Shown one piece after another: positions 1 through 12,906 of a DNA stretch of 12,906 bases. The notes below the pieces were generated by a model. The model had not been told where the DNA came from, did not search any database, and worked only from the letters and a program-made list of their open reading frames with translations. Source of the DNA: a virus (taxonomy: Duplodnaviria > Heunggongvirae > Uroviricota > Caudoviricetes); the IMG/VR virus record IMGVR_UViG_2541047938_000002; one strand, written 5' to 3'. The position numbers were made by a program, and so were the translations under genes. Position 1 is the stretch's first letter; each line of letters starts with the position of its first letter.

Positions 1-1053
1 TTACGGGGTAATGCCAACCGCTGCCGCCACTTTGTCGCCACTTGGCAGCGTTGCCAGAGGATTGAAACGGAGCGCCGTTTCCAGATGATCCGGTGCCAGA
101 TGTGCGTAACGCATAGTCATTTTTATATCGTGGTGTCCGAGAATTTTTTGTAAGGCCAGAATGTTTCCACCCGACATCATGAAGTGCGCCGCAAACGTAT
201 GGCGCAGAACGTGTGTGAGTTGACCGCGAGGGAGCACGATAGACGTTTTTTCCATCACGGATAAAAATTGAAAATAGCAGTCTGTGAAGAAATTGAACCC
301 ATCAAGCGCCATGATCTCTTCGTAAAGCTCTTTACTGATAGGGATGCTTCTGTTTTTCTTCCCCTTCGTTCTTACAAAGGTAATTCGGTATTTGGTCACC
401 TGTGAACGAGTAAGATTTACGGCTTCTCGCCAGCGTGCGCCTGTGCTTAAGCATATCTTAACTACCAGTGCCAGAATTGGGTCCTGACGTTTGCAATCAG
501 CCAGTAATTCAACAATCTGCTCATGGGTAAGCCATGCCATCTCTTTTTCTGCGATGGTGAATTTTCGCATGTTCTCCAGTGGGTTCGGATACGACCATTC
601 GCCCAGGCGGGATAGTTCGCTAAAAACACTACTTAGATAGCTTTGCTCCAGGTTAATGGTGACCGGGCTTGCTCCTTTCTTCCATTTCTCGCTGAAGTAG
701 ATCTCACCTGTCAGGCGTTTATCTCGATAGTGGGCAAACATTTTAGAGGTTAGATCAGTTGCAAGGGGATTGCCCAGAGCGTCAACCATCAGCAGCAATT
801 TGTCATAGACATGCTGCCCAGCAGTCAGTGATTTACCATGTAGTTTGAACCATAGCTCAACCACGTCTTTCAGTGTTCGACGATCCACTGATTCACCTAG
901 CCAGGGCTTTGCTTCGGTTTCTTCCATCGTGTGACGCTCAAAAGCCAGTGCTTCGCCTTTGGTGGCGAATTGTTTACGCACACGACGCCCACTACGTCCG
1001 GCGGGGTAACATTCGCAAAGCCATTTTCCTGTGGTGAGTTTTCGTACAGCCAT
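1..1053 (-). CDS. int: Tyrosine integrase, P2/186 family (350 aa)
   Basis: Track ORF 1..1131(-). Best start is ATG 1053-1051, preceded by GGAGGG (1067-1062); the upstream 26 codons of the track ORF have no support. Tyrosine-recombinase signatures are present (GARWREA, LRHTFAAHF, MTMRYAHL) and the N-terminus MAVRKLTTGKW resembles P2 Int. The stop codon is bases 3-1, so the CDS ends at the window edge. Confidence 0.9.
   Translation of the reverse strand: MAVRKLTTGKWLCECYPAGRSGRRVRKQFATKGEALAFERHTMEETEAKPWLGESVDRRTLKDVVELWFKLHGKSLTAGQHVYDKLLLMVDALGNPLATDLTSKMFAHYRDKRLTGEIYFSEKWKKGASPVTINLEQSYLSSVFSELSRLGEWSYPNPLENMRKFTIAEKEMAWLTHEQIVELLADCKRQDPILALVVKICLSTGARWREAVNLTRSQVTKYRITFVRTKGKKNRSIPISKELYEEIMALDGFNFFTDCYFQFLSVMEKTSIVLPRGQLTHVLRHTFAAHFMMSGGNILALQKILGHHDIKMTMRYAHLAPDHLETALRFNPLATLPSGDKVAAAVGITP
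19..40. repeat. Candidate attL core (left copy of direct repeat CGCTGCCGCCAYTTTGTCGCCA)
   Basis: 22-bp stretch inside the 3' end of int, identical at 21/22 positions to 10052-10073 immediately after the ogr stop (C at 30 versus T at 10063). The positions match the P2 ogr-attP-int topology. Confidence 0.55.
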
Positions 1054-1078
1054 AAAAAATGCCCTCCAATAGAGAGCA

Positions 1079-1106
1079 TTTTTACTGTATGTATAACCAG
1101 TGTCAA
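1079..1106 (-). promoter_or_regulatory. Candidate sigma70 promoter for int with an overlapping LexA-like SOS box
   Basis: On the minus strand: -35 TTGACA (1106-1101), 16-bp spacer, -10 TAAAAA (1084-1079), then the int RBS and ATG about 25 bp downstream. The plus-strand 20-mer TACTGTATGTATAACCAGTG (1083-1102) fits CTG-N10-CAG with an AT-rich spacer and sits in the promoter spacer. Confidence 0.4.
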
Positions 1107-1241
1107 TGTATGAAATCCTGCGACCATACATCTCACTGAAGCCATAATGAAGTAGGCTATTCTTTTTGCTATGTGATCATGTAACTTTTGCGGTTAACCT
1201 GTGGCTCATTTTTATTTTAGGCGCAGATATAAAAGCAAAAG

Positions 1242-1433
1242 TTATCGTGAGTTTTTAGTACAGATTTTTTTGGATTTACTAATAGTTCCATCATTGCAAA
1301 CGAATTTGCCATCAGAGGTACAGTGAGAAACACCTCCCTTTTTCCCTGAGCAGGGATAATTTCTAGCATAGGTAGCTAGTGGGTTTAATAACAAAGAACA
1401 TGACAAAACCACAAAAAATACCTTACCAAGCAT
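1242..1433 (-). CDS. Small secreted, cysteine-containing basic protein (63 aa), hypothetical; possible lysogenic-conversion moron
   Basis: ATG 1433-1431 with SD GGGAGG 5 nt upstream, starting 18 nt after the cI stop. N-terminal signal-peptide-like segment [23 protein letters not shown]; predicted mature part about 40 aa with 4 Cys and many Lys. AT-rich by eye. Confidence 0.55.
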
Positions 1434-1448
1434 AATTTCCTCCCGGTA

Positions 1449-2018
1449 CTATTTAACATACTTGACTGTTAAACTTATAATTTTACCAATTATTTCAATG
1501 TCTTCTATCTTACATTCAAAGGCTCTGTTTCCACCCTCGACGAAGATTCTTCCACCGGGTAAACGAGTAATGTCACGGATCGTTATTTCGCCATCAATAC
1601 TTATTACCCATTTACCATCACGTATATCATCAAATTCCTTATCACAAATAAATTCAGAATTATTATCTGTGATTACAAAAAGATTCTTGAATGCCGACGG
1701 TAGAAATTCTCTATCGAAAATATAAAAACCGTCTTCACACAAGGCCCCATCAGATAATACATATTTAGCAACTTCCATAGTATTTGTATTACCTGAAGTT
1801 TGCTTTGAACCATGCCCGGTTGTGAGCCAATTAAGCGAGGTGCCTGTTTCAAGGGCGCACTGGATTACCCATTCTGCTGGGAATGAGTCACGCATGTAGC
1901 GTGTGGCGAGTGTACTTTTAGAGATTCCTAAATGATCGCACAACGCCTGTCGAGTCTTGAATCCATAAGCTTCTACCATGCGCTCTATGGCGCCTCGTCC
2001 GCCTTTCTCCAAATTCAT
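1449..2018 (-). CDS. cI: CI immunity repressor, phage 186 type (189 aa)
   Basis: Track ORF 1449..2024(-); preferred start ATG 2018-2016 with GGAG 5 nt upstream. N-terminal HTH-like region (GFKTRQALCDHLGISKSTLATRYMR) and overall resemblance to 186 CI. Divergent from the apl-cII operon, as in 186. Confidence 0.85.
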   Translation of the reverse strand: MNLEKGGRGAIERMVEAYGFKTRQALCDHLGISKSTLATRYMRDSFPAEWVIQCALETGTSLNWLTTGHGSKQTSGNTNTMEVAKYVLSDGALCEDGFYIFDREFLPSAFKNLFVITDNNSEFICDKEFDDIRDGKWVISIDGEITIRDITRLPGGRIFVEGGNRAFECKIEDIEIIGKIISLTVKYVK

Positions 2019-2029
2019 GGTCACTCCAA

Positions 2030-2083
2030 GTGAACTTTTATCTTGACGATTTCACCGTGCGATCGTATGTTTATGGTGTTCAC
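2030..2083 (+). promoter_or_regulatory. Candidate early rightward promoter (pR-like) flanked by an inverted repeat, possible CI operator half-sites
   Basis: -35 TTGACG (2043-2048), 17-bp spacer, -10 TATGTT (2066-2071) upstream of apl. GTGAAC (2030-2035) and GTTCAC (2078-2083) form an inverted repeat bracketing the promoter. Operator assignment is inference. Confidence 0.35.
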
Positions 2084-2143
2084 AAAATACAAACGATCCG
2101 TATTCGTCCTGATTAATCATCATTAAACGAGGAATGTTGCATC

Positions 2144-2365
2144 ATGAGACCTAACATTTCAATCACTCTTACCACGCCTCATGTGACTATTGAACGCTAT
2201 AGCGAGCTGACAGGGCTATCCATCGATACCATCAATGACATGTTGGCTGATGGACGCCTTATCCGTCACCGTCTGCGCAAAGATAAAAAACGCGAAAAAG
2301 TGATGATCAACATAGCAGCAATGACCGTTGATGCGCTTTCAGAATGCAATCTAAACCTTAATTAG
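2144..2365 (+). CDS. apl: Apl/Cox-family excisionase and transcriptional regulator (73 aa)
   Basis: First gene of the rightward operon, divergent from cI. HTH-like segment [25 protein letters not shown]; GAGG about 11 nt upstream of the ATG. Assigned by position and size. Confidence 0.6.
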
Positions 2366-2397
2366 TTCGATTCTGAAATACATCAGAGGCATTGACC

Positions 2398-2907
2398 ATG
2401 TTTGATTACCAAGTTTCCAAACATCCACATTTTGATGAAGCCTGTCGTGCATTTGCACTGCGCCACAATCTGGTGCAACTGGCAGAACGTGCAGGCATGA
2501 ATGTGCAGATTCTGCGGAACAAGCTGAACCCAGCTCAGCCTCATTTATTAACCGCACCAGAAATCTGGCTGCTTACCGATCTGACTGAAGATTCAACGCT
2601 GGTAGATGGTTTTCTGGCACAGATTCATTGTCTGCCATGTGTACCGATTAATGAGGTGGCAAAAGAGAAACTGCCACATTACGTCATGAGTGCAACCGCA
2701 GAGATCGGGCGTGTTGCTGCAGGTGCGGTGTCTGGCGATGTAAAAACCTGTGCCGGTCGTCGTGATGCTATCAGCAGCATTAACTCTGTAACACGACTGA
2801 TGGCGCTGGCGGCTGTTTCATTGCAGGCCCGTTTACAGGCTAATCCTGCGATGGCGAGTGCAGTTGATACCGTGACTGGCCTCGGTGCTTCATTTGGTTT
2901 GCTGTGA
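2398..2907 (+). CDS. cII: CII lysogeny-establishment activator, 186 type (169 aa)
   Basis: Track ORF 2392..2907; ATG 2398 with AGAGG 8 nt upstream. [19 protein letters not shown]... closely resembles 186 CII as I recall it. Confidence 0.85.
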
Positions 2908-2914
2908 GGTGCTT

Positions 2915-3115
2915 ATGCTGACGAAAGAACCATCATTTGCATCGCTGCTGGTTAAACAAAGCCCGGCAATGCATTACGGTCACGGCTGGATCATGGGGGA
3001 GGATGGTAAACGCTGGCATCCGTGCCGTTCACAAGATGAATTGCTGGCAGAACTATCTACGAAAAAACGGGGGAACAAATGGCTATTGAAGGCACTGCGG
3101 CGACTGTTCCATTAA
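2915..3115 (+). CDS. Hypothetical small early protein (66 aa)
   Basis: ATG 2915 with GAGG 5 nt upstream, overlapping the cII stop. Sits where 186 carries small early genes; no family recognised from sequence. Confidence 0.45.
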   Translation: MLTKEPSFASLLVKQSPAMHYGHGWIMGEDGKRWHPCRSQDELLAELSTKKRGNKWLLKALRRLFH

Positions 3116-3420
3116 GCCCCGGTGAACGCCTGAATGGACTTAATCACATTGCGGAGTTAAGGGCGAAAGTTTTTGGCCTGAATATTGAGTCAGAGCTTGA
3201 GCGGTTTATTAAAGATATGCGTGATTCACGGGATATTAATAGCGAACAAAATAAACGGGCACTGGCTGCCATATTCTTTATGGCAAAAATTCCAGCTGAA
3301 CGTCATAGCATCAGCATTAATGAGCTGACCACTGACGAAAAGCGGGAGTTGATTAAAGCAATGAATCATTTTCGTGCAGTGGTGAGCTTATTTCCCAGAC
3401 GGCTAACCATGCCGAATTAA
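3079..3420 (+). CDS. Hypothetical early protein (113 aa)
   Basis: ATG 3079 with GGGGGA SD; overlaps the preceding ORF by 37 nt in another frame. No family recognised. Confidence 0.5.
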   Translation: MAIEGTAATVPLSPGERLNGLNHIAELRAKVFGLNIESELERFIKDMRDSRDINSEQNKRALAAIFFMAKIPAERHSISINELTTDEKRELIKAMNHFRAVVSLFPRRLTMPN

Positions 3421-3487
3421 CCAACTAATGAAATTAATGGCGTAAACCCGCCGGGCATCCCTTTATCTAAATTCAGGAGAATTGATT

Positions 3488-3721
3488 ATGCGTAATATTG
3501 AAACCCTCTCGACCAAAACCGGACCGGATGACGCAGGGCTTAATATTTTACTGACAGAGGCTCGTCTGGAAGAACGCCGGGCAAGGGCTGAAGCAATGGC
3601 AGCTCGCCTTGATAGCCTGGCGTGTCATATCACATCCCGCCAGCTAACCCACGTCGAAGCGGCAGAACTGCTTCGTGTGACTGCTGAAGCAATCCAGAAC
3701 GAAGCGCAGGAGATCCACTAA
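3488..3721 (+). CDS. Hypothetical early protein (77 aa)
   Basis: ATG 3488 with AGGAGA 7 nt upstream (the track begins at TTG 3482). Its stop overlaps the next start (TAATG). Confidence 0.55.
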   Translation: MRNIETLSTKTGPDDAGLNILLTEARLEERRARAEAMAARLDSLACHITSRQLTHVEAAELLRVTAEAIQNEAQEIH

Positions 3722-3948
3722 TGGCTGATGCAATGGATCTCGTACAGCAGCGCGTTGAAGAAGAACGCCAACGCCATATCCGTGCTGCCCGTGCCAAAAC
3801 GCCGGGCGTGTCCCGCGTGCTTTGCATTGAGTGTGAAGCGCCAATTCCGCCAGCACGCCGCCGTGCCATTCCGGGTGTGCAGCTTTGCATTACCTGTCAG
3901 GAAATCGCAGAGCTGAAAGGCAAACATTACAACGGAGGTGCTGTATGA
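3721..3948 (+). CDS. TraR/DksA-family C4 zinc-finger protein (75 aa)
   Basis: C-x2-C-x17-C-x2-C motif (CIECEAPIPPARRRAIPGVQLCITC); start and stop coupled to neighbouring genes. Common in P2-family early operons. Confidence 0.75.
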   Translation: MADAMDLVQQRVEEERQRHIRAARAKTPGVSRVLCIECEAPIPPARRRAIPGVQLCITCQEIAELKGKHYNGGAV

Positions 3949-4802
3949 GCACCATCCTGAAATGGGCGGGAAATAAAACTGCCATAATGTCCGAACTGAA
4001 AAAACATCTTCCTGCTGGCCCGCGACTGGTTGAACCTTTCGCGGGTTCCTGTGCTGTGATGATGGAGACGGATTATCCCAGCTATCTGGTTGCGGATATT
4101 AATCCTGATTTAATCAACCTCTATAAAAAGGTTGCCGCTGATTGTGAATCGTTTATATCTCGCGCCAGAGTTTTATTTGAGAACGCAAACAGGGAGGTGG
4201 CTTATTACAACATAAGGCAGGAGTTTAATTACTCAACTGAAATTACTGATTTCATGAAAGCGGTATATTTCCTGTATCTCAATCGTCACGGTTACCGTGG
4301 TTTATGTCGCTATAACAAGAGCGGGCATTTCAACATTCCCTACGGTAATTATAAAAATCCGTATTTCCCTGAAAAAGAAATTCGCGCATTTGCAGAAAAG
4401 GCCCAGCGAGCAACGTTTATCTGCGCCAGCTTTGATGAAACGCTGGCGATGTTGAAGGCGGGGGATGTGGTGTATTGCGATCCGCCGTATGACGGTACGT
4501 TTTCCGGCTATCACACTGACGGCTTCACTGAAGATGACCAGTATCACCTGGCATCTGTTCTTGAACATCGGTCATCAGAAGGACATCCGGTCATTGTTTC
4601 TAACAGTGACACATCCCTGATCCGTTCGCTGTATCGCAATTTTACTCACCACTACATCAAGGCAAAACGCAGCATCGGTGTGGCAGCTGGCGAGGGTAAA
4701 TCAGCAACAGAAATCATTGCTGTTTCCGGGCCGCGCTGCTGGGTGGGATTTGATTATTCGCGTGGCGTGGATAGTTCTGCCGTGTACGGAGTACGTGCAT
4801 GA
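3945..4802 (+). CDS. dam: DNA adenine methyltransferase, Dam family (285 aa)
   Basis: Track ORF starts at 3885; preferred ATG 3945 ([11 protein letters not shown]) with GGAGG 6 nt upstream. Has the SAM-binding LKWAGNK motif and the catalytic DPPY motif; strong resemblance to E. coli Dam. Confidence 0.9.
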
Positions 4803-6223
4803 GTCATGCCGATATGAACAACTGCTGCGGCTTTAACGAAGCTGCCGCATCGTTCTCATGGAACAGCTCGAAAAAGGCCATTAACCCTTATCTGGACCCG
4901 GTGGAAGTTGCGCCGGTTTCTACGCTTTCAAACCTGATCACTCTGTACGCTGCCGATAACGAGCAGGAACAGCTGCGCCGTGAGGCGCTGAGTGATCAGG
5001 TCTGGGAGCGTTATTTCTTTAATGAATCCCGTGATCCTGTCCAGCGCGAAATGGAACAGGATAAGCTCATTAGTCGGGCAAAGCTGGCGCATGAGCAGCA
5101 GCGTTTTAATCCGGATATGGTCATTCTGGCGGACGTCAACGCCCAGCCTTCCCATATCAGCAAGCCGCTGATGCAACGTATTGAATACTTCAGCAGCCTG
5201 GGCAGGCCAAAGGCTTATTCCCGCTATTTACGTGAGACGATTAAGCCATGTCTGGAACGACTGGAGCATGTACGCGACAGTCAGCTATCTGCATCTTTTC
5301 GCTTTATGGCAAGCCATGAAGGGCTGGACGGCCTGCTGATCCTGCCTGAAATGAGTCAGGATCAGGTGAAACGCCTGTCCACCCTGGTAGCTGCGCATAT
5401 GAGTATGTGCCTTGATGCCGCTTGTGGCGATTTGTATGCCACCGATGACGTTAAGCCAGAAGAAATCCGCAATACATGGGAAAGGGTGGCAGCGGAAACC
5501 CTGCGTCTGGATGTCATCCCGCCTGCGTTTGAGCAACTCCGTCGGAAAAGAAACCGCCGTAAACCCGTGCCCTATGAACTCATTCCGGGTTCGCTGGCGC
5601 GTATGTTGTGCGCCGACTGGTGGTATCGGAAATTATGGAAGATGCGTTGCGAATGGCGGGAAGAGCAGTTGCGTGCTGTCTGCCTTGTCAGCAAAAAAGC
5701 ATCTCCCTATGTCAGCTATGAAGCCGTGTTGCATAAACGTGAGCAGCGCCGTAAGTCGCTGGAGTTTTTCCGTTCTCATGAACTGGTGAACGAAGACGGC
5801 GACACGCTAGACATGGAGGATGTGGTAAACGCCAGCAGCAGCAACCCTGCGCATCGCCGCAATGAGATGATGGCCTGTGTTAAAGGTCTGGAGCTTATCG
5901 CGGAAATGCGCGGTGACTGCGCCGTTTTCTACACCATCACCTGTCCGTCACGTTTCCATTCCACGCTAAATAACGGCAGGCCCAACCCGACCTGGACAAA
6001 TGCGACGGTAAGACAAAGCAGCGATTATCTGGTCGGTATGTTTGCTGCATTTCGTAAGGCGATGCACAAAGCCGGGTTGCGCTGGTATGGCGTGCGGGTG
6101 TCAGTGTGGTGTTCATGGCACAAACCTACAGCCTTGAATGAAGGCTTTCCCCGCCTGCGGTTTGTGTGGTTGTCGGTACAAATACCGCGCATTGTTTCAC
6201 TGCCCCCATCACCGCAACCATAA
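4799..6223 (+). pseudogene. A: Replication initiation endonuclease A (P2 gpA / 186 A family), apparently truncated with a non-homologous tail
   Basis: ATG 4799 overlaps the dam stop (ATGA), GGAG upstream. Resembles the N-terminal ~430 aa of P2-family A (…ITCPSRFH…RWYGVRV). After about 6100 the frame runs 41 unrelated codons to a stop at 6223, and the HUH region I expect next (…EPHHDGT.HWH…) is absent. Confidence 0.65.
6105..6180 (+). promoter_or_regulatory. Late-promoter region with two TGT-N12-ACA (Ogr/Delta-type) activator boxes upstream of O
   Basis: TGT(6105-6107)-N12-ACA(6120-6122) and TGT(6163-6165)-N12-ACA(6178-6180). The second box is centred about 88 bp upstream of the O start codon, consistent with a -55 activator site for a start site near 6226. 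Confidence 0.45.
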
Positions 6224-6258
6224 GGCTCCAGTAAGTTTTTTCTAACGGAGCACGGCTC

Positions 6259-7086
6259 ATGACAGTGAAAGCAAAGCGTTTTCGCATCGGGGTGGAAGGT
6301 GCCACCACCGACGGACGCGAAATCCAGCGTGAATGGCTGGAACAGATGGCAGCCAGCTACAACCCGGCGGTGTATACCGCGCTGATTAACCTTGAGCACA
6401 TCAAGTCTTATCTGCCGGACAGCACCTTTAACCGCTACGGCAAGGTGACGGCGCTGTTTGCTGAAGAAATCACGGAAGGTCCGCTGGCAGGCAAGATGGC
6501 GCTGTATGCCGACGTTGAGCCAACGGAGTCCCTGGTGGAACTGGTGAAAAAAGGCCAGAAATTATTCACCTCTATGGAAGTCAGCCCGAAGTTCGCTGAT
6601 ACGGGCAAAGCCTACCTGGTCGGCCTGGCTGCTACTGATGACCCTGCCAGTCTGGGTACGGAAATGCTGACATTCAGCGCCAGTGCAGCCCATAACCCGC
6701 TGGCAAACCGCAAGCAGAATCCTGCCAATCTCTTTACCGCTGCAGAGGAAACGGTGATCGAACTGGAAGAAATCCAGGACGACAAACCGTCCCTGTTTGC
6801 CCGCGTCACGGCGCTGTTTACCAAAAAAGAGCAGTCCGATGACGCCCGGTTCTCTGATGTGCATAAGGCCGTGGAGCTGGTCGCCACTGAGCAGCAGAAC
6901 CTGAGTGCACGCACCGAAAAATCCCTGTCTGAGCAGGAAGAACGCCTGTCTGAGCTGGAGACTGCCCTGCAGGCACAGCAAACCGCCTTTAACGAACTGG
7001 TGGACAAGCTGAGTCATGAAGACAGTCGCCAGGACTACCGCCAGCGTGCAACAGGCGGTACCTGCATTTTCATAAATACTTTTTAG
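6259..7086 (+). CDS. O: Capsid scaffold protein gpO (275 aa), C-terminal ~9 residues replaced at a deletion junction
   Basis: ATG 6259 with GGAG 8 nt upstream. FRIGVEG…DGR…INLEH…SMEV.P.FA.TGK.YLVGLAATDDPASLGTE… resembles P2 gpO. Similarity is lost after …ATGG (about 7059) and the frame ends TCIFINTF. Confidence 0.8.
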   Translation: MTVKAKRFRIGVEGATTDGREIQREWLEQMAASYNPAVYTALINLEHIKSYLPDSTFNRYGKVTALFAEEITEGPLAGKMALYADVEPTESLVELVKKGQKLFTSMEVSPKFADTGKAYLVGLAATDDPASLGTEMLTFSASAAHNPLANRKQNPANLFTAAEETVIELEEIQDDKPSLFARVTALFTKKEQSDDARFSDVHKAVELVATEQQNLSARTEKSLSEQEERLSELETALQAQQTAFNELVDKLSHEDSRQDYRQRATGGTCIFINTF

Positions 7087-7295
7087 CTCATCAGCGTAGA
7101 ACGCATTTTCTTTTGCAGAATAAAACATATTAATCACCATCCAATCGCGAAAACTCTAAAGCCACCGTAGCCAGCACATGTAATTTGAGTTTTTGTCATA
7201 CCAGTGTAATACGTTCTACCAACAGCCAAATTATATGCAGTTGTAGAACTCAAATCAGCAGCCCCAGTTGATACATCACTAAATAACGGAATCAT
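7060..7295 (-). pseudogene. Remnant of a tail-fibre gene 3' end plus the 5' end of a tail-fibre assembly (Tfa) gene, inverted relative to the other late genes
   Basis: Minus-strand ORF 7295..7134 (…AGYGGFRVFAIGW*) whose TGA overlaps ATG 7140 of a second reading frame, MVINMFYSAKENAFYADELKSIYENAG, in the ATGGTGA arrangement typical of fibre/tfa pairs. That N-terminus matches the conserved start of Tfa proteins as I recall it. The frame becomes antisense O after about 26 codons. Confidence 0.5.
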
Positions 7296-8163
7296 GCACT
7301 CATTTGGGAATGCAATAGGGAAACCCATCACCGCATTTCTCGGTGGCGTGGTGGAAGGATTCAAAGCGGCGGCAGGTCCCATCAGTGCTGCATTCGAACC
7401 ACTTAAGCCTGTGTTTCAGTGGATTGGCGACAAAGTACAGGCGCTGTGGGGCTGGTTTACTGATCTGCTGACGCCCGTTAAGTCGACCTCTGCCGAACTG
7501 CAGAGTGCAGCGGCAATGGGGCGACGATTCGGGGAGGCACTGGCGGAAGGGCTGAATATGGTCATGCATCCGCTGGACTCCCTGAAATCCGGCGTTTCCT
7601 GGTTGCTGGAGAAGCTCGGCATTGTCAGTAAAGAGGCCGCAAAGGCAAAACTGCCGGAAAGCGTGACGCGTCAGCAACCTGCGACGGTGAATGCAGACGG
7701 TAAAGTGATGATGCCATTGGGTGGTTTTCCATCATGGGGATATGGCTTTGCGGGGATGTATGACAGCGGCGGGTATATCCCGCGCGGGCAGTTTGGCATC
7801 GTCGGTGAAAACGGGCCGGAAATTGTTAACGGCCCGGCAAATGTGACCAGCCGGAGAAATACCGCTGCACTGGCTGCCGTTGTTGCCGGAATGATGGGCG
7901 TTGCTGCCGCGCCTGCAGAGCTTCCACCGTTGCACCCTTTGGCACTTCCCGCGAAAGGCGGCGAAGCGATGGTGAGTCGTGCAGCCACTGTGCCGCCCGT
8001 TCAACGGATTGAGGCACCGATGCAGATCATCATTCAGACGCAGCCAGGACAAAGTGCGCAGGATATTGCGCGGGAGGTGGCCCGCCAGCTTGATGAACGT
8101 GAACGCAGGCTGAAAGCAAAAGCCAGGAGTAACTACAGCGATCAGGGGGGATACGACGCATGA
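7294..8163 (+). pseudogene. T: Tail tape-measure protein (gpT family), C-terminal ~289 aa only
   Basis: The frame opens at ATG 7294 exactly at the junction with the inverted fibre fragment. Contains GIVGENGPE and Gly/Ala-rich segments typical of P2-family tape-measure C-termini; these proteins are about 800 aa. Stop overlaps the U start (ATGA). Confidence 0.7.
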
Positions 8164-8645
8164 TGATGGTGCTGGGATTGTACGTGTTTATGCTGCGCAC
8201 CGTGCCGTATCAGGAGCTGCAGTATCAACGCAGCTGGCGACATGCGGCAAACAGCCGGGTAAACCGACGTCCGTCCACGCAGTTTCTGGGACCGGACAAC
8301 GACATGCTGACGCTTTCCGGTGTTCTTATGCCGGAGATAACAGGTGGCAGGCTGTCGTTGCTGGCACTGGAGCAGATGGCAGAACAGGGGAAAGCATGGC
8401 CCCTGATTGAAGGCAGCGGCACGATTTATGGCATGTATGTGATTGAGGGACTGAATCAGACTAAAACGGAGTTTTTCCGCGACGGTATGCCGCGCCGGAT
8501 TGAGTTCACCCTGTCGCTCAAACGGGTGGATGAATCCCTGTCCGATATGTTCGGTGATCTCAGTGCGCAACTGAATAATCTGCAGGAAACGGCAACGTCT
8601 GCCTTAAGCGATATCAGTAAAACGGTGGGAGGGCTGCTGTCGTGA
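8160..8645 (+). CDS. U: Tail protein gpU (161 aa)
   Basis: ATG 8160 with G-rich SD. Position between T and D and resemblance to P2 gpU; stop overlaps the D start (GTGA). Confidence 0.8.
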   Translation: MMMVLGLYVFMLRTVPYQELQYQRSWRHAANSRVNRRPSTQFLGPDNDMLTLSGVLMPEITGGRLSLLALEQMAEQGKAWPLIEGSGTIYGMYVIEGLNQTKTEFFRDGMPRRIEFTLSLKRVDESLSDMFGDLSAQLNNLQETATSALSDISKTVGGLLS

Positions 8646-9742
8646 ATTTCAGCTCTGAACTGCTTAACAAAGGCAACAAAACTCCCGCATTCAGCATCAG
8701 TATTGAGGGCAGGGATATCACCACTGTGCTGGATAACCGCCTGATGAGTTTGACGCTGACGGATAACCGGGGCTTTGAAGCGGACCAGCTTGATCTGGAG
8801 CTGGATGACGCTGACGGAAAAATCGTGCTGCCGCGCCGTGGTGCGGTCATTACGCTGGCGCTGGGCTGGAAGGGGCAGCCGCTTTTCCCTAAAGGGGCAT
8901 TCACAGTGGACGAGATTGAACACACTGGCGCACCGGACCGCCTGACTATCCGGGCGCGAAGTGCTGATTTTCGGGAAACGCTGAATACCCGCCGTGAAAA
9001 ATCGTGGCATAAGACCACCGTCGGGGAAGTGGTGAAGGAAATAGCCGCGCGGCACAAGCTGAAGATGGCACTGGGTAAAGACCTGTCGGATAAGCCCGTG
9101 GAGCATATAGACCAGACTAATGAGAGTGACGGCAGTTTTCTGATGCGGCTGGCGAGACAGTACGGTGCCATCGCGTCGGTGAAAAATGGCAATCTGTTAT
9201 TCATCCGGCAGGGGCAGGGCAAAAGCGCCACTGGTAAACCTCTGCCAGTGATCACTATCACACGTAAGGACGGCGACAGTCACCGCTTTACCCTGGCGGA
9301 TCGCGGAGCTTACACGGGTGTAATTGCCAGCTGGTTGCATACCCGCGAACCCGCGAAGAAAGAAAGCACCACGGTGAAGCGTAAGCGCAGGACTAAGAAG
9401 CAGAAGAAAGAGCCGGAAGCGAAGCAGGGCGATTACCTGGTGGGGACGGATGAAAACGTGCTGGTACTTAATCGCACCTATGCTAATCGGAGTAACGCCG
9501 AACGGGCAGCGAAAATGCAGTGGGAACGCCTGCAACGCGGTGTTGCGTCATTCTCGCTACAACTGGCGGAAGGTCGGGCGGATCTCTACACGGAAATGCC
9601 TGTGAAGGTCAGCGGCTTTAAACAGCCGATAGATGATGCGGAATGGACCATTACCACCCTGACACATACCGTCAGCCCGGATAACGGTTTTACGACCAGT
9701 ATGGAGCTTGAAGTGAGGATTGATGATTTCGAAATGGAATGA
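8642..9742 (+). CDS. D: Tail protein gpD / late control protein D (366 aa)
   Basis: GTG 8642 with GGTGGGAGGG SD. Position immediately upstream of ogr and resemblance to P2 gpD. Confidence 0.8.
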   Translation: MNFSSELLNKGNKTPAFSISIEGRDITTVLDNRLMSLTLTDNRGFEADQLDLELDDADGKIVLPRRGAVITLALGWKGQPLFPKGAFTVDEIEHTGAPDRLTIRARSADFRETLNTRREKSWHKTTVGEVVKEIAARHKLKMALGKDLSDKPVEHIDQTNESDGSFLMRLARQYGAIASVKNGNLLFIRQGQGKSATGKPLPVITITRKDGDSHRFTLADRGAYTGVIASWLHTREPAKKESTTVKRKRRTKKQKKEPEAKQGDYLVGTDENVLVLNRTYANRSNAERAAKMQWERLQRGVASFSLQLAEGRADLYTEMPVKVSGFKQPIDDAEWTITTLTHTVSPDNGFTTSMELEVRIDDFEME

Positions 9743-9832
9743 TTCTTCGCAATGGAGAACTTTTAAGTTTGCAAAATGGAATAATACGGTATCATTGTTG
9801 TGAATTTAGCAAAAATGGGGAGAACTCGAAAA

Positions 9833-10051
9833 ATGATGATTTGCCCACTGTGTGGAAGTGCCGCCCATACTCGCAGCAGTTTTCAGGTATCTTCATTGAC
9901 CAAAGAGCGTTACAACCAGTGCCAGAACATTAACTGCAGCCATACTTTTGTTACCCATGAAACTTTTGTTCGTTCGATTGCAACGCCAAAAGAGTCAAAT
10001 CCGGTTCAGCCGCATCCAATGAAATCAGGACAGGTGGCGCTCTCTCTTTGA
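9833..10051 (+). CDS. ogr: Ogr/Delta-family zinc-finger late transcription activator (72 aa)
   Basis: Track ORF 9800..10051; preferred ATG 9833 (MMICPLCGSAAH…) giving 72 aa, as in P2 Ogr. Zinc-finger motif C-x2-C-x22-C-x4-C; GGGGAGA about 10 nt upstream. Confidence 0.9.
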   Translation: MMICPLCGSAAHTRSSFQVSSLTKERYNQCQNINCSHTFVTHETFVRSIATPKESNPVQPHPMKSGQVALSL

Positions 10052-10073
10052 CGCTGCCGCCATTTTGTCGCCA
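10052..10073. repeat. Candidate attR core (right copy of the direct repeat)
   Basis: CGCTGCCGCCATTTTGTCGCCA begins at the base after the ogr stop codon and matches 19-40 at 21/22 positions. Confidence 0.55.
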
Positions 10074-10127
10074 TCGTTAAAAAACAGTGTTTCTAACATC
10101 ATGATTTTAAACAGCTTAAATTTCAGG

Positions 10128-10174
10128 CAACAAAAAACCCATCAACCTTGAACCGAAATGGCGGGGTTGATGGG
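10128..10174 (-). terminator. Rho-independent terminator downstream of ybjL (host side of attR)
   Basis: 10-bp GC-rich stem (10138-10147 pairs with 10165-10174), 17-nt loop, then TTTTTTGTTG on the minus strand (plus A-run 10132-10137); 113 nt after the ybjL stop. Confidence 0.55.
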
Positions 10175-10286
10175 CTCCACAAAATGGGGACATCAAAGAA
10201 AAGCAGTGGCACTAATTAAGACTGATGCCCTGCGGAAAAGTTCTGCGGTTGTGCAAAAAAATTTCATTTTCAGGGCAACTTCAGTT

Positions 10287-11972
10287 TTATCCTAATCCTG
10301 GCCATACCATGACGATGATTGTCCCTGCCAGCGTCAGCAGGACGTTGGCGATTGCATAGGTGCCCGCATAGCCCAGCGCCGGGATGTTACTGCGAGCTGT
10401 ATCACTGATGATCTCCATTGCCGGCGCGCAGGTACGTGCGCCCATCATTGCGCCGAACAACAGCGCGCGGTTCATTCGCAATACATAAGCACCGAACAAG
10501 AAACAGATAACCACGGGCACCAGACTGACAATCAATCCGGCAATCAACATCTGACCGCCAATCGCGCCCAGGCCGTTATTAATACCGCTACCGGCGCTCA
10601 GACCAACGCCTGCCATAAACACCATCAAGCCGAACTCTTTCACCATGCTTAATGCACCCTGCGGAATGTAACCGAAGGTCGGGTGGTTAGCACGCATAAA
10701 GCCCAGCATAATTCCGGCGAATAACAACCCGGCAGCGTTCCCCATGCCGAAACTGAATGTGCTGAACTGGAAGGTGATCATCCCGATCATCAGCCCAATA
10801 ACAAAGAAGGCGCAGAATGCCAGCAGGTCAGTGACCTGGCTGTGAATCGAGATAAAGCCGATGCGATCGGCGATGGTTTTTACGCGGCGGGCATCGCCGC
10901 TGACTTGTAAAACGTCACCTTTGTTAAGCACGACGTTGTCATCTATCGGCATCTCAATCTGGCTACGAATGACGCGGTTAAGGAAGCAACCGTGATCGGT
11001 CAACTTCAGTTGTGCGAGACGTTTACCTACAGCGTTATGGTTTTTAACGACCACTTCTTCAGTGACGATACGCATGTCGAGAAGGTCACGATCGAAAACT
11101 TCTTTACCGTTACGGAAGCTGGGATCGAGTCGGGCATGGGCGTCGGGATAGCCTACCAACGCTATTTCATCGCCCATTTGTAGCACGGCATCACCGTCTG
11201 GATTTGCCAGAATCCCGTTACGTCGAATACGTTCAATGTAGCAGCCGGTTTGTCGATAAATACCCAGTTCACGCAGATTTTTGCCGTCGGTCCAGGCCAC
11301 CAGTTCCGGGCCGACGCGATAGGCGCGGATCACCGGTAAATAAACCTTACGGTTGGCATCAGTGTCCAGGCCACGTTCGCGGGCGATTTGCTGGGCGCTG
11401 GTCTGTAAGTCCTGATGCTGCAATTTCGGCAAGTAACGCGCACCAACAATCAAACTCACCAGACCGATTAAATAGGTTAAGGCATACCCGAGGCTCAGAT
11501 TATCCAGTGCCAGTGAGAGCTGCCTGCTTTCCATGCCGGAATGACGCAGTGTATCGCCAGCACCGACCAGAACCGGTGTCGACGTCATAGAGCCTGCTAA
11601 CATACCGGCCGTCAGGCCAATATCCCAGCCAAACAGCTTACCTAACCCTAAGGCGATCACCAGCGCACTGCCAACCATCACCAGTGCTAACATTAGGTAA
11701 TTTTTCCCATCGCGAAAAAAAATGGAAAAAAAGTTCGGTCCGGCTTCGACCCCGACGCAGAAAATAAACAGCATAAAGCCAAGATTAAGCGCATCGGTGT
11801 TAATGCTGAAATGTTGTTGGCCTAATAACAGCGATACGACTAAAACGCCAATGGAATTACCCAGTTGGATCGAACCAAGTCGTAACTTTCCGAGACATAG
11901 CCCAAGCGCGAGGACCACAAATAATAACAGAATGTAATTCCCATTTAACAATTCGGCGACGTTTATATTCAC
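10287..11972 (-). CDS. ybjL: Putative AAE-family transporter YbjL (561 aa)
   Basis: Full-length ORF whose sequence ([24 protein letters not shown]…) I recognise as E. coli YbjL; GTG start at 11972; neighbours ybjM and grxA as in E. coli. Confidence 0.9.
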
Positions 11973-12241
11973 GGAGGCTAACTTCTTGTTTACTAGTAAG
12001 CTGTTGAAAGAAATGGTAATTTACGATAATGTTTTTTACCAGAATTCAGGGCGCAGATTCATTCAGCGCACCTAAACGATAGTAAAGTAACAATATATTT
12101 TACTAGTGTAATCACATTAGGTATCAACGGCTATATGAATTGCGTTGGCCTATATTAGCATGGAATGCGAAGCGGCTTTATCTTACTGAACGCCACACTG
12201 GCGAAAAATGTGTTCGATAGACGCAGTGTCAGGAGGAACGA

Positions 12242-12619
12242 GTGAAACATAAACAACGTTGGGCGGGGGCAATCTGCTGTTTTGTCCTCTTCATTGTGGT
12301 GTGCCTTTTTCTGGCGACGCACATGAAAGGCGCTTTTCGGGCTGCCGGGCATCCTGAAATCGGCTTGCTATTTTTCATTCTTCCTGGAGCAGTCGCCAGC
12401 TTCTTTTCACAGCGTAGAGAAGTCCTGAAACCTCTGTTTGGCGCAATGCTGGCGGCACCCTGTTCGATGCTCATTATGCGGCTGTTTTTTTCACCGACGC
12501 GCTCATTCTGGCAAGAGCTGGCATGGTTACTAAGCGCGGTGTTCTGGTGTGCGCTGGGGGCACTGTGTTTCTTATTTATCAGTAGTTTGTTTAAACCACA
12601 GCACAGAAAAAATCAGTAA
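12242..12619 (+). CDS. ybjM: Inner-membrane protein YbjM (125 aa)
   Basis: GTG 12242 with AGGAGGA SD; hydrophobic multi-pass sequence; divergent from ybjL and convergent with grxA, as in E. coli. Confidence 0.85.
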   Translation: MKHKQRWAGAICCFVLFIVVCLFLATHMKGAFRAAGHPEIGLLFFILPGAVASFFSQRREVLKPLFGAMLAAPCSMLIMRLFFSPTRSFWQELAWLLSAVFWCALGALCFLFISSLFKPQHRKNQ

Positions 12620-12639
12620 AGCCCTCAACGCGAGGGCTT
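12619..12639 (-). terminator. Hairpin between convergent ybjM and grxA, probable grxA terminator
   Basis: Stem AAGCCCTC/GAGGGCTT with loop AACGC. On the minus strand a T6 run follows 6 nt after the stem; no U-tract on the plus strand. Confidence 0.4.
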
Positions 12640-12648
12640 GTCAGACGA

Positions 12649-12906
12649 TCAGGCGTCCAGATTTTCTTTCACCCATGCAGCAAAATCGGTATAGCCGCCG
12701 ATATGTTGCTGATCGACAAAAATCTGCGGCACGGTTTCTACGGGTTTACCTGCCTTTTGTTGTAGATCTTCTTTAGTGATCCCTTCCGCACGAATATCTA
12801 CATACTGATACTGAAAATCATCGCGTTCATTGCTCAATTTCTCAGCCAGATCTTTTGCACGCACACAGTAAGGGCAACCCGAACGACCAAAAATAACGGT
12901 TTGCAT
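12649..12906 (-). CDS. grxA: Glutaredoxin 1 (85 aa)
   Basis: MQTVIFGRSGCPYCVRAKDL… with the CPYC active site; recognised as E. coli GrxA. ATG at 12906-12904 at the window edge. Confidence 0.95.
   Translation of the reverse strand: MQTVIFGRSGCPYCVRAKDLAEKLSNERDDFQYQYVDIRAEGITKEDLQQKAGKPVETVPQIFVDQQHIGGYTDFAAWVKENLDA

Follow-up and report, generated by a model that had tools for sequence, protein, structure and literature searches.

The locus and its direct repeat

The stretch of DNA considered here, IMG/VR record IMGVR_UViG_2541047938_000002 (12,906 nucleotides, hereafter the window), consists of the right 99% of a defective P2-family prophage followed by host DNA, at a site that lies between rcdA and ybjL in Escherichia coli. 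Two copies of a 22-bp direct repeat are found near the ends of the phage DNA, one within the 3′ end of the integrase gene int and the other directly after ogr. These copies are very probably pairs of arm-type integrase-binding sites that flank the 14-bp attachment core of a PhiECO1-type prophage decayed by deletion, as judged from sequence comparison. The features on which this interpretation depends are the following.

1-1053, minus strand: int, intact, encoding a 350-residue tyrosine integrase of the 186 type (Pfam Int_N, Phage_integrase)
22-43, plus strand: P′ arm, two predicted tandem 11-bp arm-type sites, TGCCGCCACTT and TGTCGCCACTT, within the int 3′ end; match to the 186-type consensus
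9833-10051, plus strand: ogr, late-gene activator (Pfam Ogr_Delta)
10055-10076, plus strand: P arm, two predicted tandem 11-bp arm-type sites, TGCCGCCATTT and TGTCGCCATCG, non-coding, after ogr; match to the consensus
10129-10142, plus strand: attachment core in attR, AACAAAAAACCCAT (empty site compared with occupied junctions; att annotation of phage 4LV2017; PhiECO1 coordinates)
10138-10174, no strand: host hairpin between the convergent rcdA and ybjL (folding energy -22 kcal/mol, z about -3.5 to -4)
10287-12906: host genes ybjL (minus), ybjM (plus) and grxA (minus), 99.86% identical to E. coli 5CRE51

The left copy of the 22-mer (19-40, CGCTGCCGCCACTTTGTCGCCA) and the right copy (10052-10073, CGCTGCCGCCATTTTGTCGCCA) are in direct orientation and agree at 21 of 22 positions, as an initial annotation of the window had noted. 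A search of the whole window, allowing up to 3 mismatches, returns these two copies only; a second copy within 3 mismatches appeared in none of 200 dinucleotide-preserving shuffles of the window, and the pair (repeat family D13) is its sole high-identity direct repeat of at least 20 nt. The reading frame of int, on the minus strand, crosses the left copy, which codes for Int residues 338-345, and continues to a stop at bases 3-1; this part of the initial annotation is confirmed. The right copy begins one base after the ogr stop codon (10049-10051) and lies in non-coding DNA. Read in register, the repeat amounts to two 11-bp units per arm (22-32 and 33-43 on the left; 10055-10065 and 10066-10076 on the right) of the form TGCCGCCAYTT, TGTCGCCA...

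The attachment core and the boundaries of the element

The initial annotation took the 22-mer itself for the attL and attR core, delimiting an element of about 10 kb in which the last residues of Int would be host-encoded. Such a reading draws on a significant direct repeat near both ends of the phage DNA and on the position of a P2-like attP, which does lie between ogr and int. The empty site argues otherwise. In E. coli 5CRE51 the uninterrupted rcdA-ybjL locus reads gataacaaaaaacccat up to the junction and caaccttgaaccgaaatggcggggttgatgggctcc after it (that is, caacc after the junction), and no 22-mer is found in this locus with up to 3 mismatches. In two occupied loci (L001, from strain 1223, and L003) the rcdA-side junction has the same gataacaaaaaacccat followed by ttatgtaaatgggttaatg (also given as aacaaaaaacccat followed by ttatgtaaa), and 92 bp of non-host DNA separate the attL core from the left 22-mer. 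On the other side, identity to the host (99.86% to 5CRE51) resumes around window positions 10117-10143, and the right junction falls at 10142/10143, with phage DNA up to 10142 and host DNA from 10143 onwards, 69 bp past the right 22-mer.

The sequence common to attB, attL and attR is the 14-bp AACAAAAAACCCAT, which is therefore identified as the crossover core. It occurs once in the window, at 10129-10142 (attR), where it starts 55 bp past the right 22-mer and sits at the host/element junction. The 22-mer is not the crossover core, because it is absent from the empty attB and because the junctions lie 55 and 92 bp outside its two copies, neither of which is at a host/element junction. Thus, of the initial annotation, the integration of a P2-type element between rcdA and ybjL stands, and so does the placement of the copies in the attL and attR regions; their role as the core and as the limits of the element does not. 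Alignment to an E. coli genome lacking the insert had been proposed there as a check, and it gave locus boundaries that differ from those of the repeat, an outcome which the initial annotation had itself named as speaking against its proposal.

Free phages and related prophages point the same way. When attP is rebuilt from the two arms of the window, it is found as a contiguous sequence, with 98.1% identity, in Klebsiella phage KP12 (OM835953), a sewage isolate, in the order ogr, 22-mer, 55 bp, core, 92 bp, 22-mer, int. This agrees with the position of attP between ogr and int given in the initial annotation. Since both 22-mers occur together in the contiguous attP of a free phage, both are phage DNA. 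KP12 and phage 4LV2017 (KY271398; Elveevirus, Peduoviridae) share the attP of the window element at 98% identity, including both 22-mers and the core, but they are complete Klebsiella phages of 33-35 kb, their core identity with attB reaches 19-20 bp, and the P-arm copy of KP12 differs from that of the window at 2 of 22 positions. In the GenBank record of 4LV2017, attL and attR are annotated as CAGGCAACAAAAAACCCAT, which corresponds to the 14-bp core sequence. The published coordinates of PhiECO1 in E. coli HS (916812-948276; PMC3448106) likewise run from the attL core to where the attR core begins. These three independent lines (the KP12 attP, the 4LV2017 att annotation and the PhiECO1 coordinates) agree with the boundaries given above.

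The C-terminus of Int can be settled by the same comparison. The tail SGDKVAAAVGITP is included in the 100% identity between the window Int and that of KP12, and over window bases 1-18 there is no difference from the P′ arm of the phage. The C-terminus is phage-encoded, because Int including its tail is identical to that of a free phage, and the suggestion of host-encoded residues is not borne out. With an empty attB that lacks the 22-mer, junctions outside both copies, both copies in the KP12 attP, an identical Int tail in KP12 and two records whose ends are the 14-bp core, it is hardly credible that the 22-mer delimits the element.

The co-occurrence of two concentric pairs of direct repeats, one of 14 bp on the outside and one of 22 bp on the inside, could alternatively be taken as a sign of nested or tandem elements: an inner element, with the 22-mers as its attachment sites, would have entered the attP of an older element that has the 14-bp core at its ends. 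In KP12, however, the two 22-mers are about 160 bp apart and flank a stretch that holds the core, with the rest of the phage genome outside them, and 186 and P2 show this arrangement too. Given the KP12 geometry, the apparent ‘outer’ arms are the P and P′ arms of one phage, and a nested origin is extremely improbable.

To judge from the identical sequence in relatives, the attL copy of the core would be found beyond the left edge of the window, about 75-88 bp from base 1. To the left of the window one would expect AACAAAAAACCCAT, then TTATGTAAA(T/C)GGGTTAATG, with window base 1 about 75 bp later; the element would accordingly span positions -73 to 10142, about 10.2 kb, and precise excision at the 14-bp core would restore an attB reading gataacaaaaaacccatcaacc.

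Predicted arm-type integrase-binding sites

If the 22-mer pair does not mark the crossover, the arm-site reading has to account for its sequence and for its place in attP. Two consensus sequences for arm sites have been published, tgTGGaCa for P2-type and tgccGCCActt for 186-type integrases (Nilsson et al., PMC3448106), and the GenBank record of phage 186 (NC_001317) lists predicted Int arm sites of the form YAYCGCCAYTY, of which 3 are on the left side of attP and 2 on the right. Three of the four units in the window (TGCCGCCACTT, TGTCGCCACTT and TGCCGCCATTT) match the latter at 10 of 11 positions each. Phage 186 too has its sites as 11-bp tandems, CACCGCCATTC and TATCGCCACTC on the P arm and TACCGCCACTT and TATCGCCATTC on the P′ arm; the third, inverted P-arm site of 186 is not evident in the window element. 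The arm motif of P2, TGTGGACA, is unlike the 186-type units found here.

The spacing is also that of an attP. In the KP12 attP and in the prophage junctions, the tandem pairs lie 52-55 bp to the left and 92-95 bp to the right of the core. The P′ pair of 186 is 97 bp from the predicted crossover, compared with 95 bp from the core end to the first unit here. More generally, in 186 and P2 the P arm directly follows the ogr/B gene, and about 95-100 bp separate the crossover from the P′ arm, which is at or in the int 3′ end. Specifically, the P2 record (NC_001895), which has annotated Int-binding regions, places the P-arm site right after the ogr terminator, and the P′-arm site of P2 (TGTGGACACTG TGTGGACACTC) falls inside the last int codons, as it does in the window. 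What differs between these phages is the core and the host target, which is the tRNA-Ile gene ileY for 186, locI for P2 and the rcdA-ybjL interval for the window element.

The integrase itself is consistent with recognition of 186-type arms. It is 100% identical to KP12 Int, 99% to that of PhiECO1, 56% to that of 186 and 35% to that of P2. Residues W11, E14 and Y16 are as in 186 Int, whereas P2 has Y, D and R. Compared with 186 by domain, identity is 60-63% in the two terminal domains (60% over the N-terminal 45 residues) and 47% in the core-binding domain, the most diverged part; shared W/E/Y residues, conserved terminal domains and a diverged core-binding domain are the pattern expected of an integrase with 186-type arm sites. 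If it works like its counterparts in P2, 186 and lambda, Int would bind the arm sites through its N-terminal domain, with the core-binding and catalytic domains acting at the core, and Int, IHF and an Apl/Cox protein would together build the intasome for integration and excision. Binding of Int to the units described here is predicted by homology, from the predicted sites of 186 and the annotated sites of P2.

In 186, the interval between the core and the P′ tandem contains an IHF site and five Apl sites. The corresponding interval of the related prophage in strain 1223 (L001 3927-4018, in the P′ arm, to the left of the window) has two direct repeats, aaaacaataagttag(a/g)tt, about 20 bp apart, together with a ggtggtcagtggtgg motif; these may be Apl/Cox or IHF sites of this phage.

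Conservation of the repeat outside the integrase gene

A further possibility is that the repeat is a matter of coding conservation only, or that a piece of the int 3′ end was duplicated, without any function in cis. Int residues 338-345 are indeed encoded by the left copy, and the motif is frequent at int 3′ ends. Against this, the right copy is non-coding and the units match a published arm-site consensus. In addition, in PhiECO1 and in strain 1223 the left copy is itself non-coding yet identical: a 349-bp segment with an open reading frame (ORF) of 89 residues separates the P′ tandem from int, window bases 1-44 are kept at 100%, and homology to the window ends directly after the second 11-bp unit. 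The PhiECO1 Int has a different 7-residue tail owing to this 349-bp segment, whose ORF is not in the window element.

A survey of IMG/VR extends the comparison to other phages. The 19-mer TGCCGCCAYTTTGTCGCCA has matches in at least 120 contigs. Among the loci with the present core, the P-arm motif starts 74 bp before the start of the core in 29 of 30, and the P′ motif lies at +109 from the core in all 6 of 6. The same 19-mer also adjoins other cores (the 186 tRNA-Ile fragment, other tRNA-like 3′ ends and a different terminator-like sequence), and in these phages the flanks and the int C-termini have diverged beside the motif, but the 19-mer is unchanged, as is the spacing between it and the core. 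As the survey was based on exact matches to the 19-mer, these counts describe a conserved geometry in varied contexts rather than an unbiased rate of conservation. Taken with the non-coding copies, they make an origin in coding conservation alone very unlikely. Among the tRNA-like neighbours, only the 186-type tRNA-Ile fragment was identified, through comparing it directly with the 186 record; ARAGORN finds no tRNA genes in the IMG/VR loci with P′ arms beside tRNA-like sequence, because the phages carry only 3′ fragments of tRNAs.

Four points nevertheless weigh against the interpretation of the 22-mer pair as arm sites around a 14-bp core. First, the fourth unit, TGTCGCCATCG, matches YAYCGCCAYTY at only 8 of 11 positions, its last two bases being off consensus. 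Second, the arm sites are predicted for this Int, and those of 186 likewise bear only a ‘predicted’ annotation. Third, attL is outside the window, so its presence in the source genome is deduced from the identical sequence of relatives. Fourth, the IMG/VR scan pre-selected the exact 19-mer and is no unbiased measure of conservation.

The stretch between the P′ arm sites and int appears variable in its own right. The 349-bp insert (L001 4045-4394; PhiECO1 locus L006 1945-2293) maps between window bases 44 and 42, and its 89-residue product (WP_001032044.1) has no Pfam match. In other IMG/VR relatives, unrelated and differing sequence starts right after ...GTCGCCACT, the place at which 186 has Orf69. 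This stretch looks like a hotspot for cargo genes.

The edges of the window deserve separate mention. The window opens exactly at the int stop codon (bases 1-3) and closes exactly at the start codon of grxA (12649-12906). Of 124 motif matches in IMG/VR provirus contigs, 43 are at contig position 22, as in the window, which is typical of predicted proviruses trimmed at gene boundaries; these edges are the result of such trimming and are not biological boundaries.

Gene content and deletions

Between int and the P arm, the window holds the following genes and fragments.

1242-1433, minus strand: small ORF of 63 residues, annotated in related prophages; no Pfam match
1449-2018, minus strand: cI, immunity repressor of the 186 type (Pfam Phage_CI_repr, Phage_CI_C)
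2144-2365, plus strand: gene in the apl/cox position, opposite cI; putative excisionase and repressor, with weak N-terminal similarity to 186 Apl (E 1e-4) and no Pfam match
2398-3115, plus strand: cII (2398-2907; Pfam Phage_CP76) and fil (2915-3115; Pfam Phage_186_Fil)
3079-4802, plus strand: early genes for DUF5347, DUF2732, a TraR/DksA zinc finger and a Dam methylase (Pfam)
4799-6223, plus strand: truncated replication gene A; homology to about 6100, the ORF tail to 6223 being out-of-context sequence
6093-6100, no strand: deletion junction 1, with loss of PhiECO1 8353-15315 (the rest of gpA, the cos-like region, portal and terminase)
6259-7086, plus strand: gpO, capsid scaffold (Pfam Phage_GPO), last residues replaced at junction 2, about 7060
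7059-7323, minus strand: inverted fragment of a tail-fibre C-terminus and tail-fibre assembly gene (Pfam Gp53-like_C; 92% identity)
7319-8163, plus strand: C-terminal 845 nt of gpT (tape measure), aligned to L006 from 30467, within T at 28234-31311
8160-9742, plus strand: gpU (8160-8645; Pfam Phage_P2_GpU) and gpD (8642-9742; Pfam Phage_GPD)

Lengths agree with those annotated in relatives for int, cI, the apl-position gene, cII, fil, dam, U, D and ogr, and of these genes all except the apl-position gene match the expected Pfam families. Nucleotide identity to three related loci (L006, L005 and L004) is 96-99%. The int-cI/apl-cII-fil regulatory region and the P2-type late genes T, U, D and ogr that characterise the PhiECO1 group are present, and the element can be assigned to the P2 family, 186-type in its regulatory region, within the group of PhiECO1, 4LV2017 and KP12.

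PhiECO1 (E. coli HS, NC_009800 916812-948276) is the most useful reference for what has been lost. It occupies the same rcdA-ybjL site, as do PhiECO2, PhiECO3 and PhiSEN1 (Nilsson et al. 2011, PMC3448106), and it has the same core and arm sites as the window element, with 98.2% nucleotide identity over the retained segments; it is, however, a full prophage of 31.5 kb. The window maps onto PhiECO1 (L006) as follows.

Window 42-6100: L006 2294-8352, int through the first 1302 nt of gpA
Window 6093-7060: L006 15316-16283, first 24 nt of the terminase gene, intergenic sequence and gpO minus its end
Window 7059-7323: no counterpart at that place in L006, inverted tail-fibre/tail-fibre assembly fragment
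Window 7319-10142: L006 from 30467, last 845 nt of the tape-measure gene, gpU, gpD, ogr, P arm and core

Two PhiECO1 intervals (8353-15315 and 16284-30466) are deleted. Compared with PhiECO1, the element has lost about 21 kb that would serve replication, packaging and the building of head and tail, including half of gpA, the cos-homologous region and the portal, terminase, capsid, lysis, baseplate, sheath and tube genes. It measures only about 10.2 kb because at least three internal deletions removed this DNA. For gpA, the Pfam match covers positions 1-243 of the 321 of Phage_GPA and the PhiECO1 alignment stops at L006 8352 (gpA 7051-9465). A probe made of the 186 cos region matches L006 at 10951-11050, within a deleted interval, and has no match in the window. 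With gpA, gpO and gpT truncated, and with cos, portal, terminase, capsid and the full tail gone, the genome is incomplete; the element is a defective remnant that is unable to replicate from gpA, to be packaged or to make particles.

The initial annotation had likened the element to P4, and the likeness holds for size only. Like P4, it is small and has an activator of the Ogr/Delta family and a tyrosine integrase, and these, together with the immunity repressor, could suggest a P4-like satellite or some other small mobilisable island using a P2-type helper. Its content, however, is that of a deletion derivative of a helper-type phage: each segment is 96-99% identical to a contiguous stretch of full PhiECO1-type phages, and the segments are joined at deletion junctions at which gpA, gpO and gpT are truncated. 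No cos-like sequence is found in the window, and a Pfam scan of 17 window ORFs gave no P4 gene family, whether alpha primase-helicase, sid, psu, delta, epsilon or P4-type int. Other remnants at the same site have different junctions, which speaks for independent decay and not for a conserved satellite architecture. A satellite origin is accordingly a most improbable explanation, and the content is better described as that of a PhiECO1/186-type prophage with internal deletions.

The comparison among remnants can be taken further. Remnants of 8-13 kb at this site (L012, L028, L077 and those of strain 504239, H80 and H95) keep the int-cI-early region and the T-U-D-ogr end, and the internal junctions of L012, L028 and L077 differ from those of the window. 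The gpA/terminase junction is present in none of the complete E. coli genomes, and none of the three deletion junctions occurs in any of the IMG/VR loci fetched. Since the other remnants have different junctions, and the gpA/terminase junction is in no complete E. coli genome, the evidence points to independent decay rather than to a conserved small element. The element may still confer immunity through cI, and its intact int, apl-like gene and arm sites suggest that excision may be possible. One could go on to propose that the remnant is a maintained excisable module (intact int, apl-like gene, cI, arm sites and core) that occupies attB and gives immunity against PhiECO1-type phages. This is unlikely; were it the case, the repeated independent survival of both ends (int-dam and T-U-D-ogr) in remnants of about 8-13 kb would reflect selection and not chance decay.

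The 265-bp inverted tail-fibre piece at 7059-7323 is 92% identical to other P2-like prophages and is not at this place in PhiECO1. A rearrangement may have left it there, or it may be what remains of an alternative tail-fibre segment that had been inverted.

The host site and the calling of prophage boundaries

The rcdA-ybjL site is frequently occupied. Among 5426 complete E. coli genomes, attB is uninterrupted in 4226 and an ogr-arm-core-ybjL junction is found in 1110, so that about 20% carry a phage or a remnant there. Earlier publications or annotations (PMC3448106; NC_001317, NC_001895, KY271398) already cover this site and its core, as well as the consensus of the arm sites and the phage group. 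For the window element, the present analysis shows where the boundaries are, that attP is contiguous, that the motif and the geometry match, and which deletions have occurred. The repeat is real and functionally meaningful, but feature, phage group and site were all known before.

The case also calls for caution in boundary calling. The most conspicuous direct repeat near the ends of a P2/186-family prophage is an arm-site tandem and not the crossover core. Calls based on such a repeat (i) misplace both ends by 55-92 bp and (ii) invite false inferences, such as a ‘host-encoded Int C-terminus’ or a ‘P4-like size’.

A scan of window positions 9700-10400 gave no canonical terminator, and the host hairpin listed above is visible only by folding. 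The last 5 nt of the core start the stem of this -22 kcal/mol hairpin, which places the core in the ascending stem between the convergent rcdA and ybjL. The attR side keeps the hairpin for ybjL, and the P′ arm brings a new one, aacccatttATGTaaatgggtt (-10 kcal/mol; L001 3920-3941), after rcdA.

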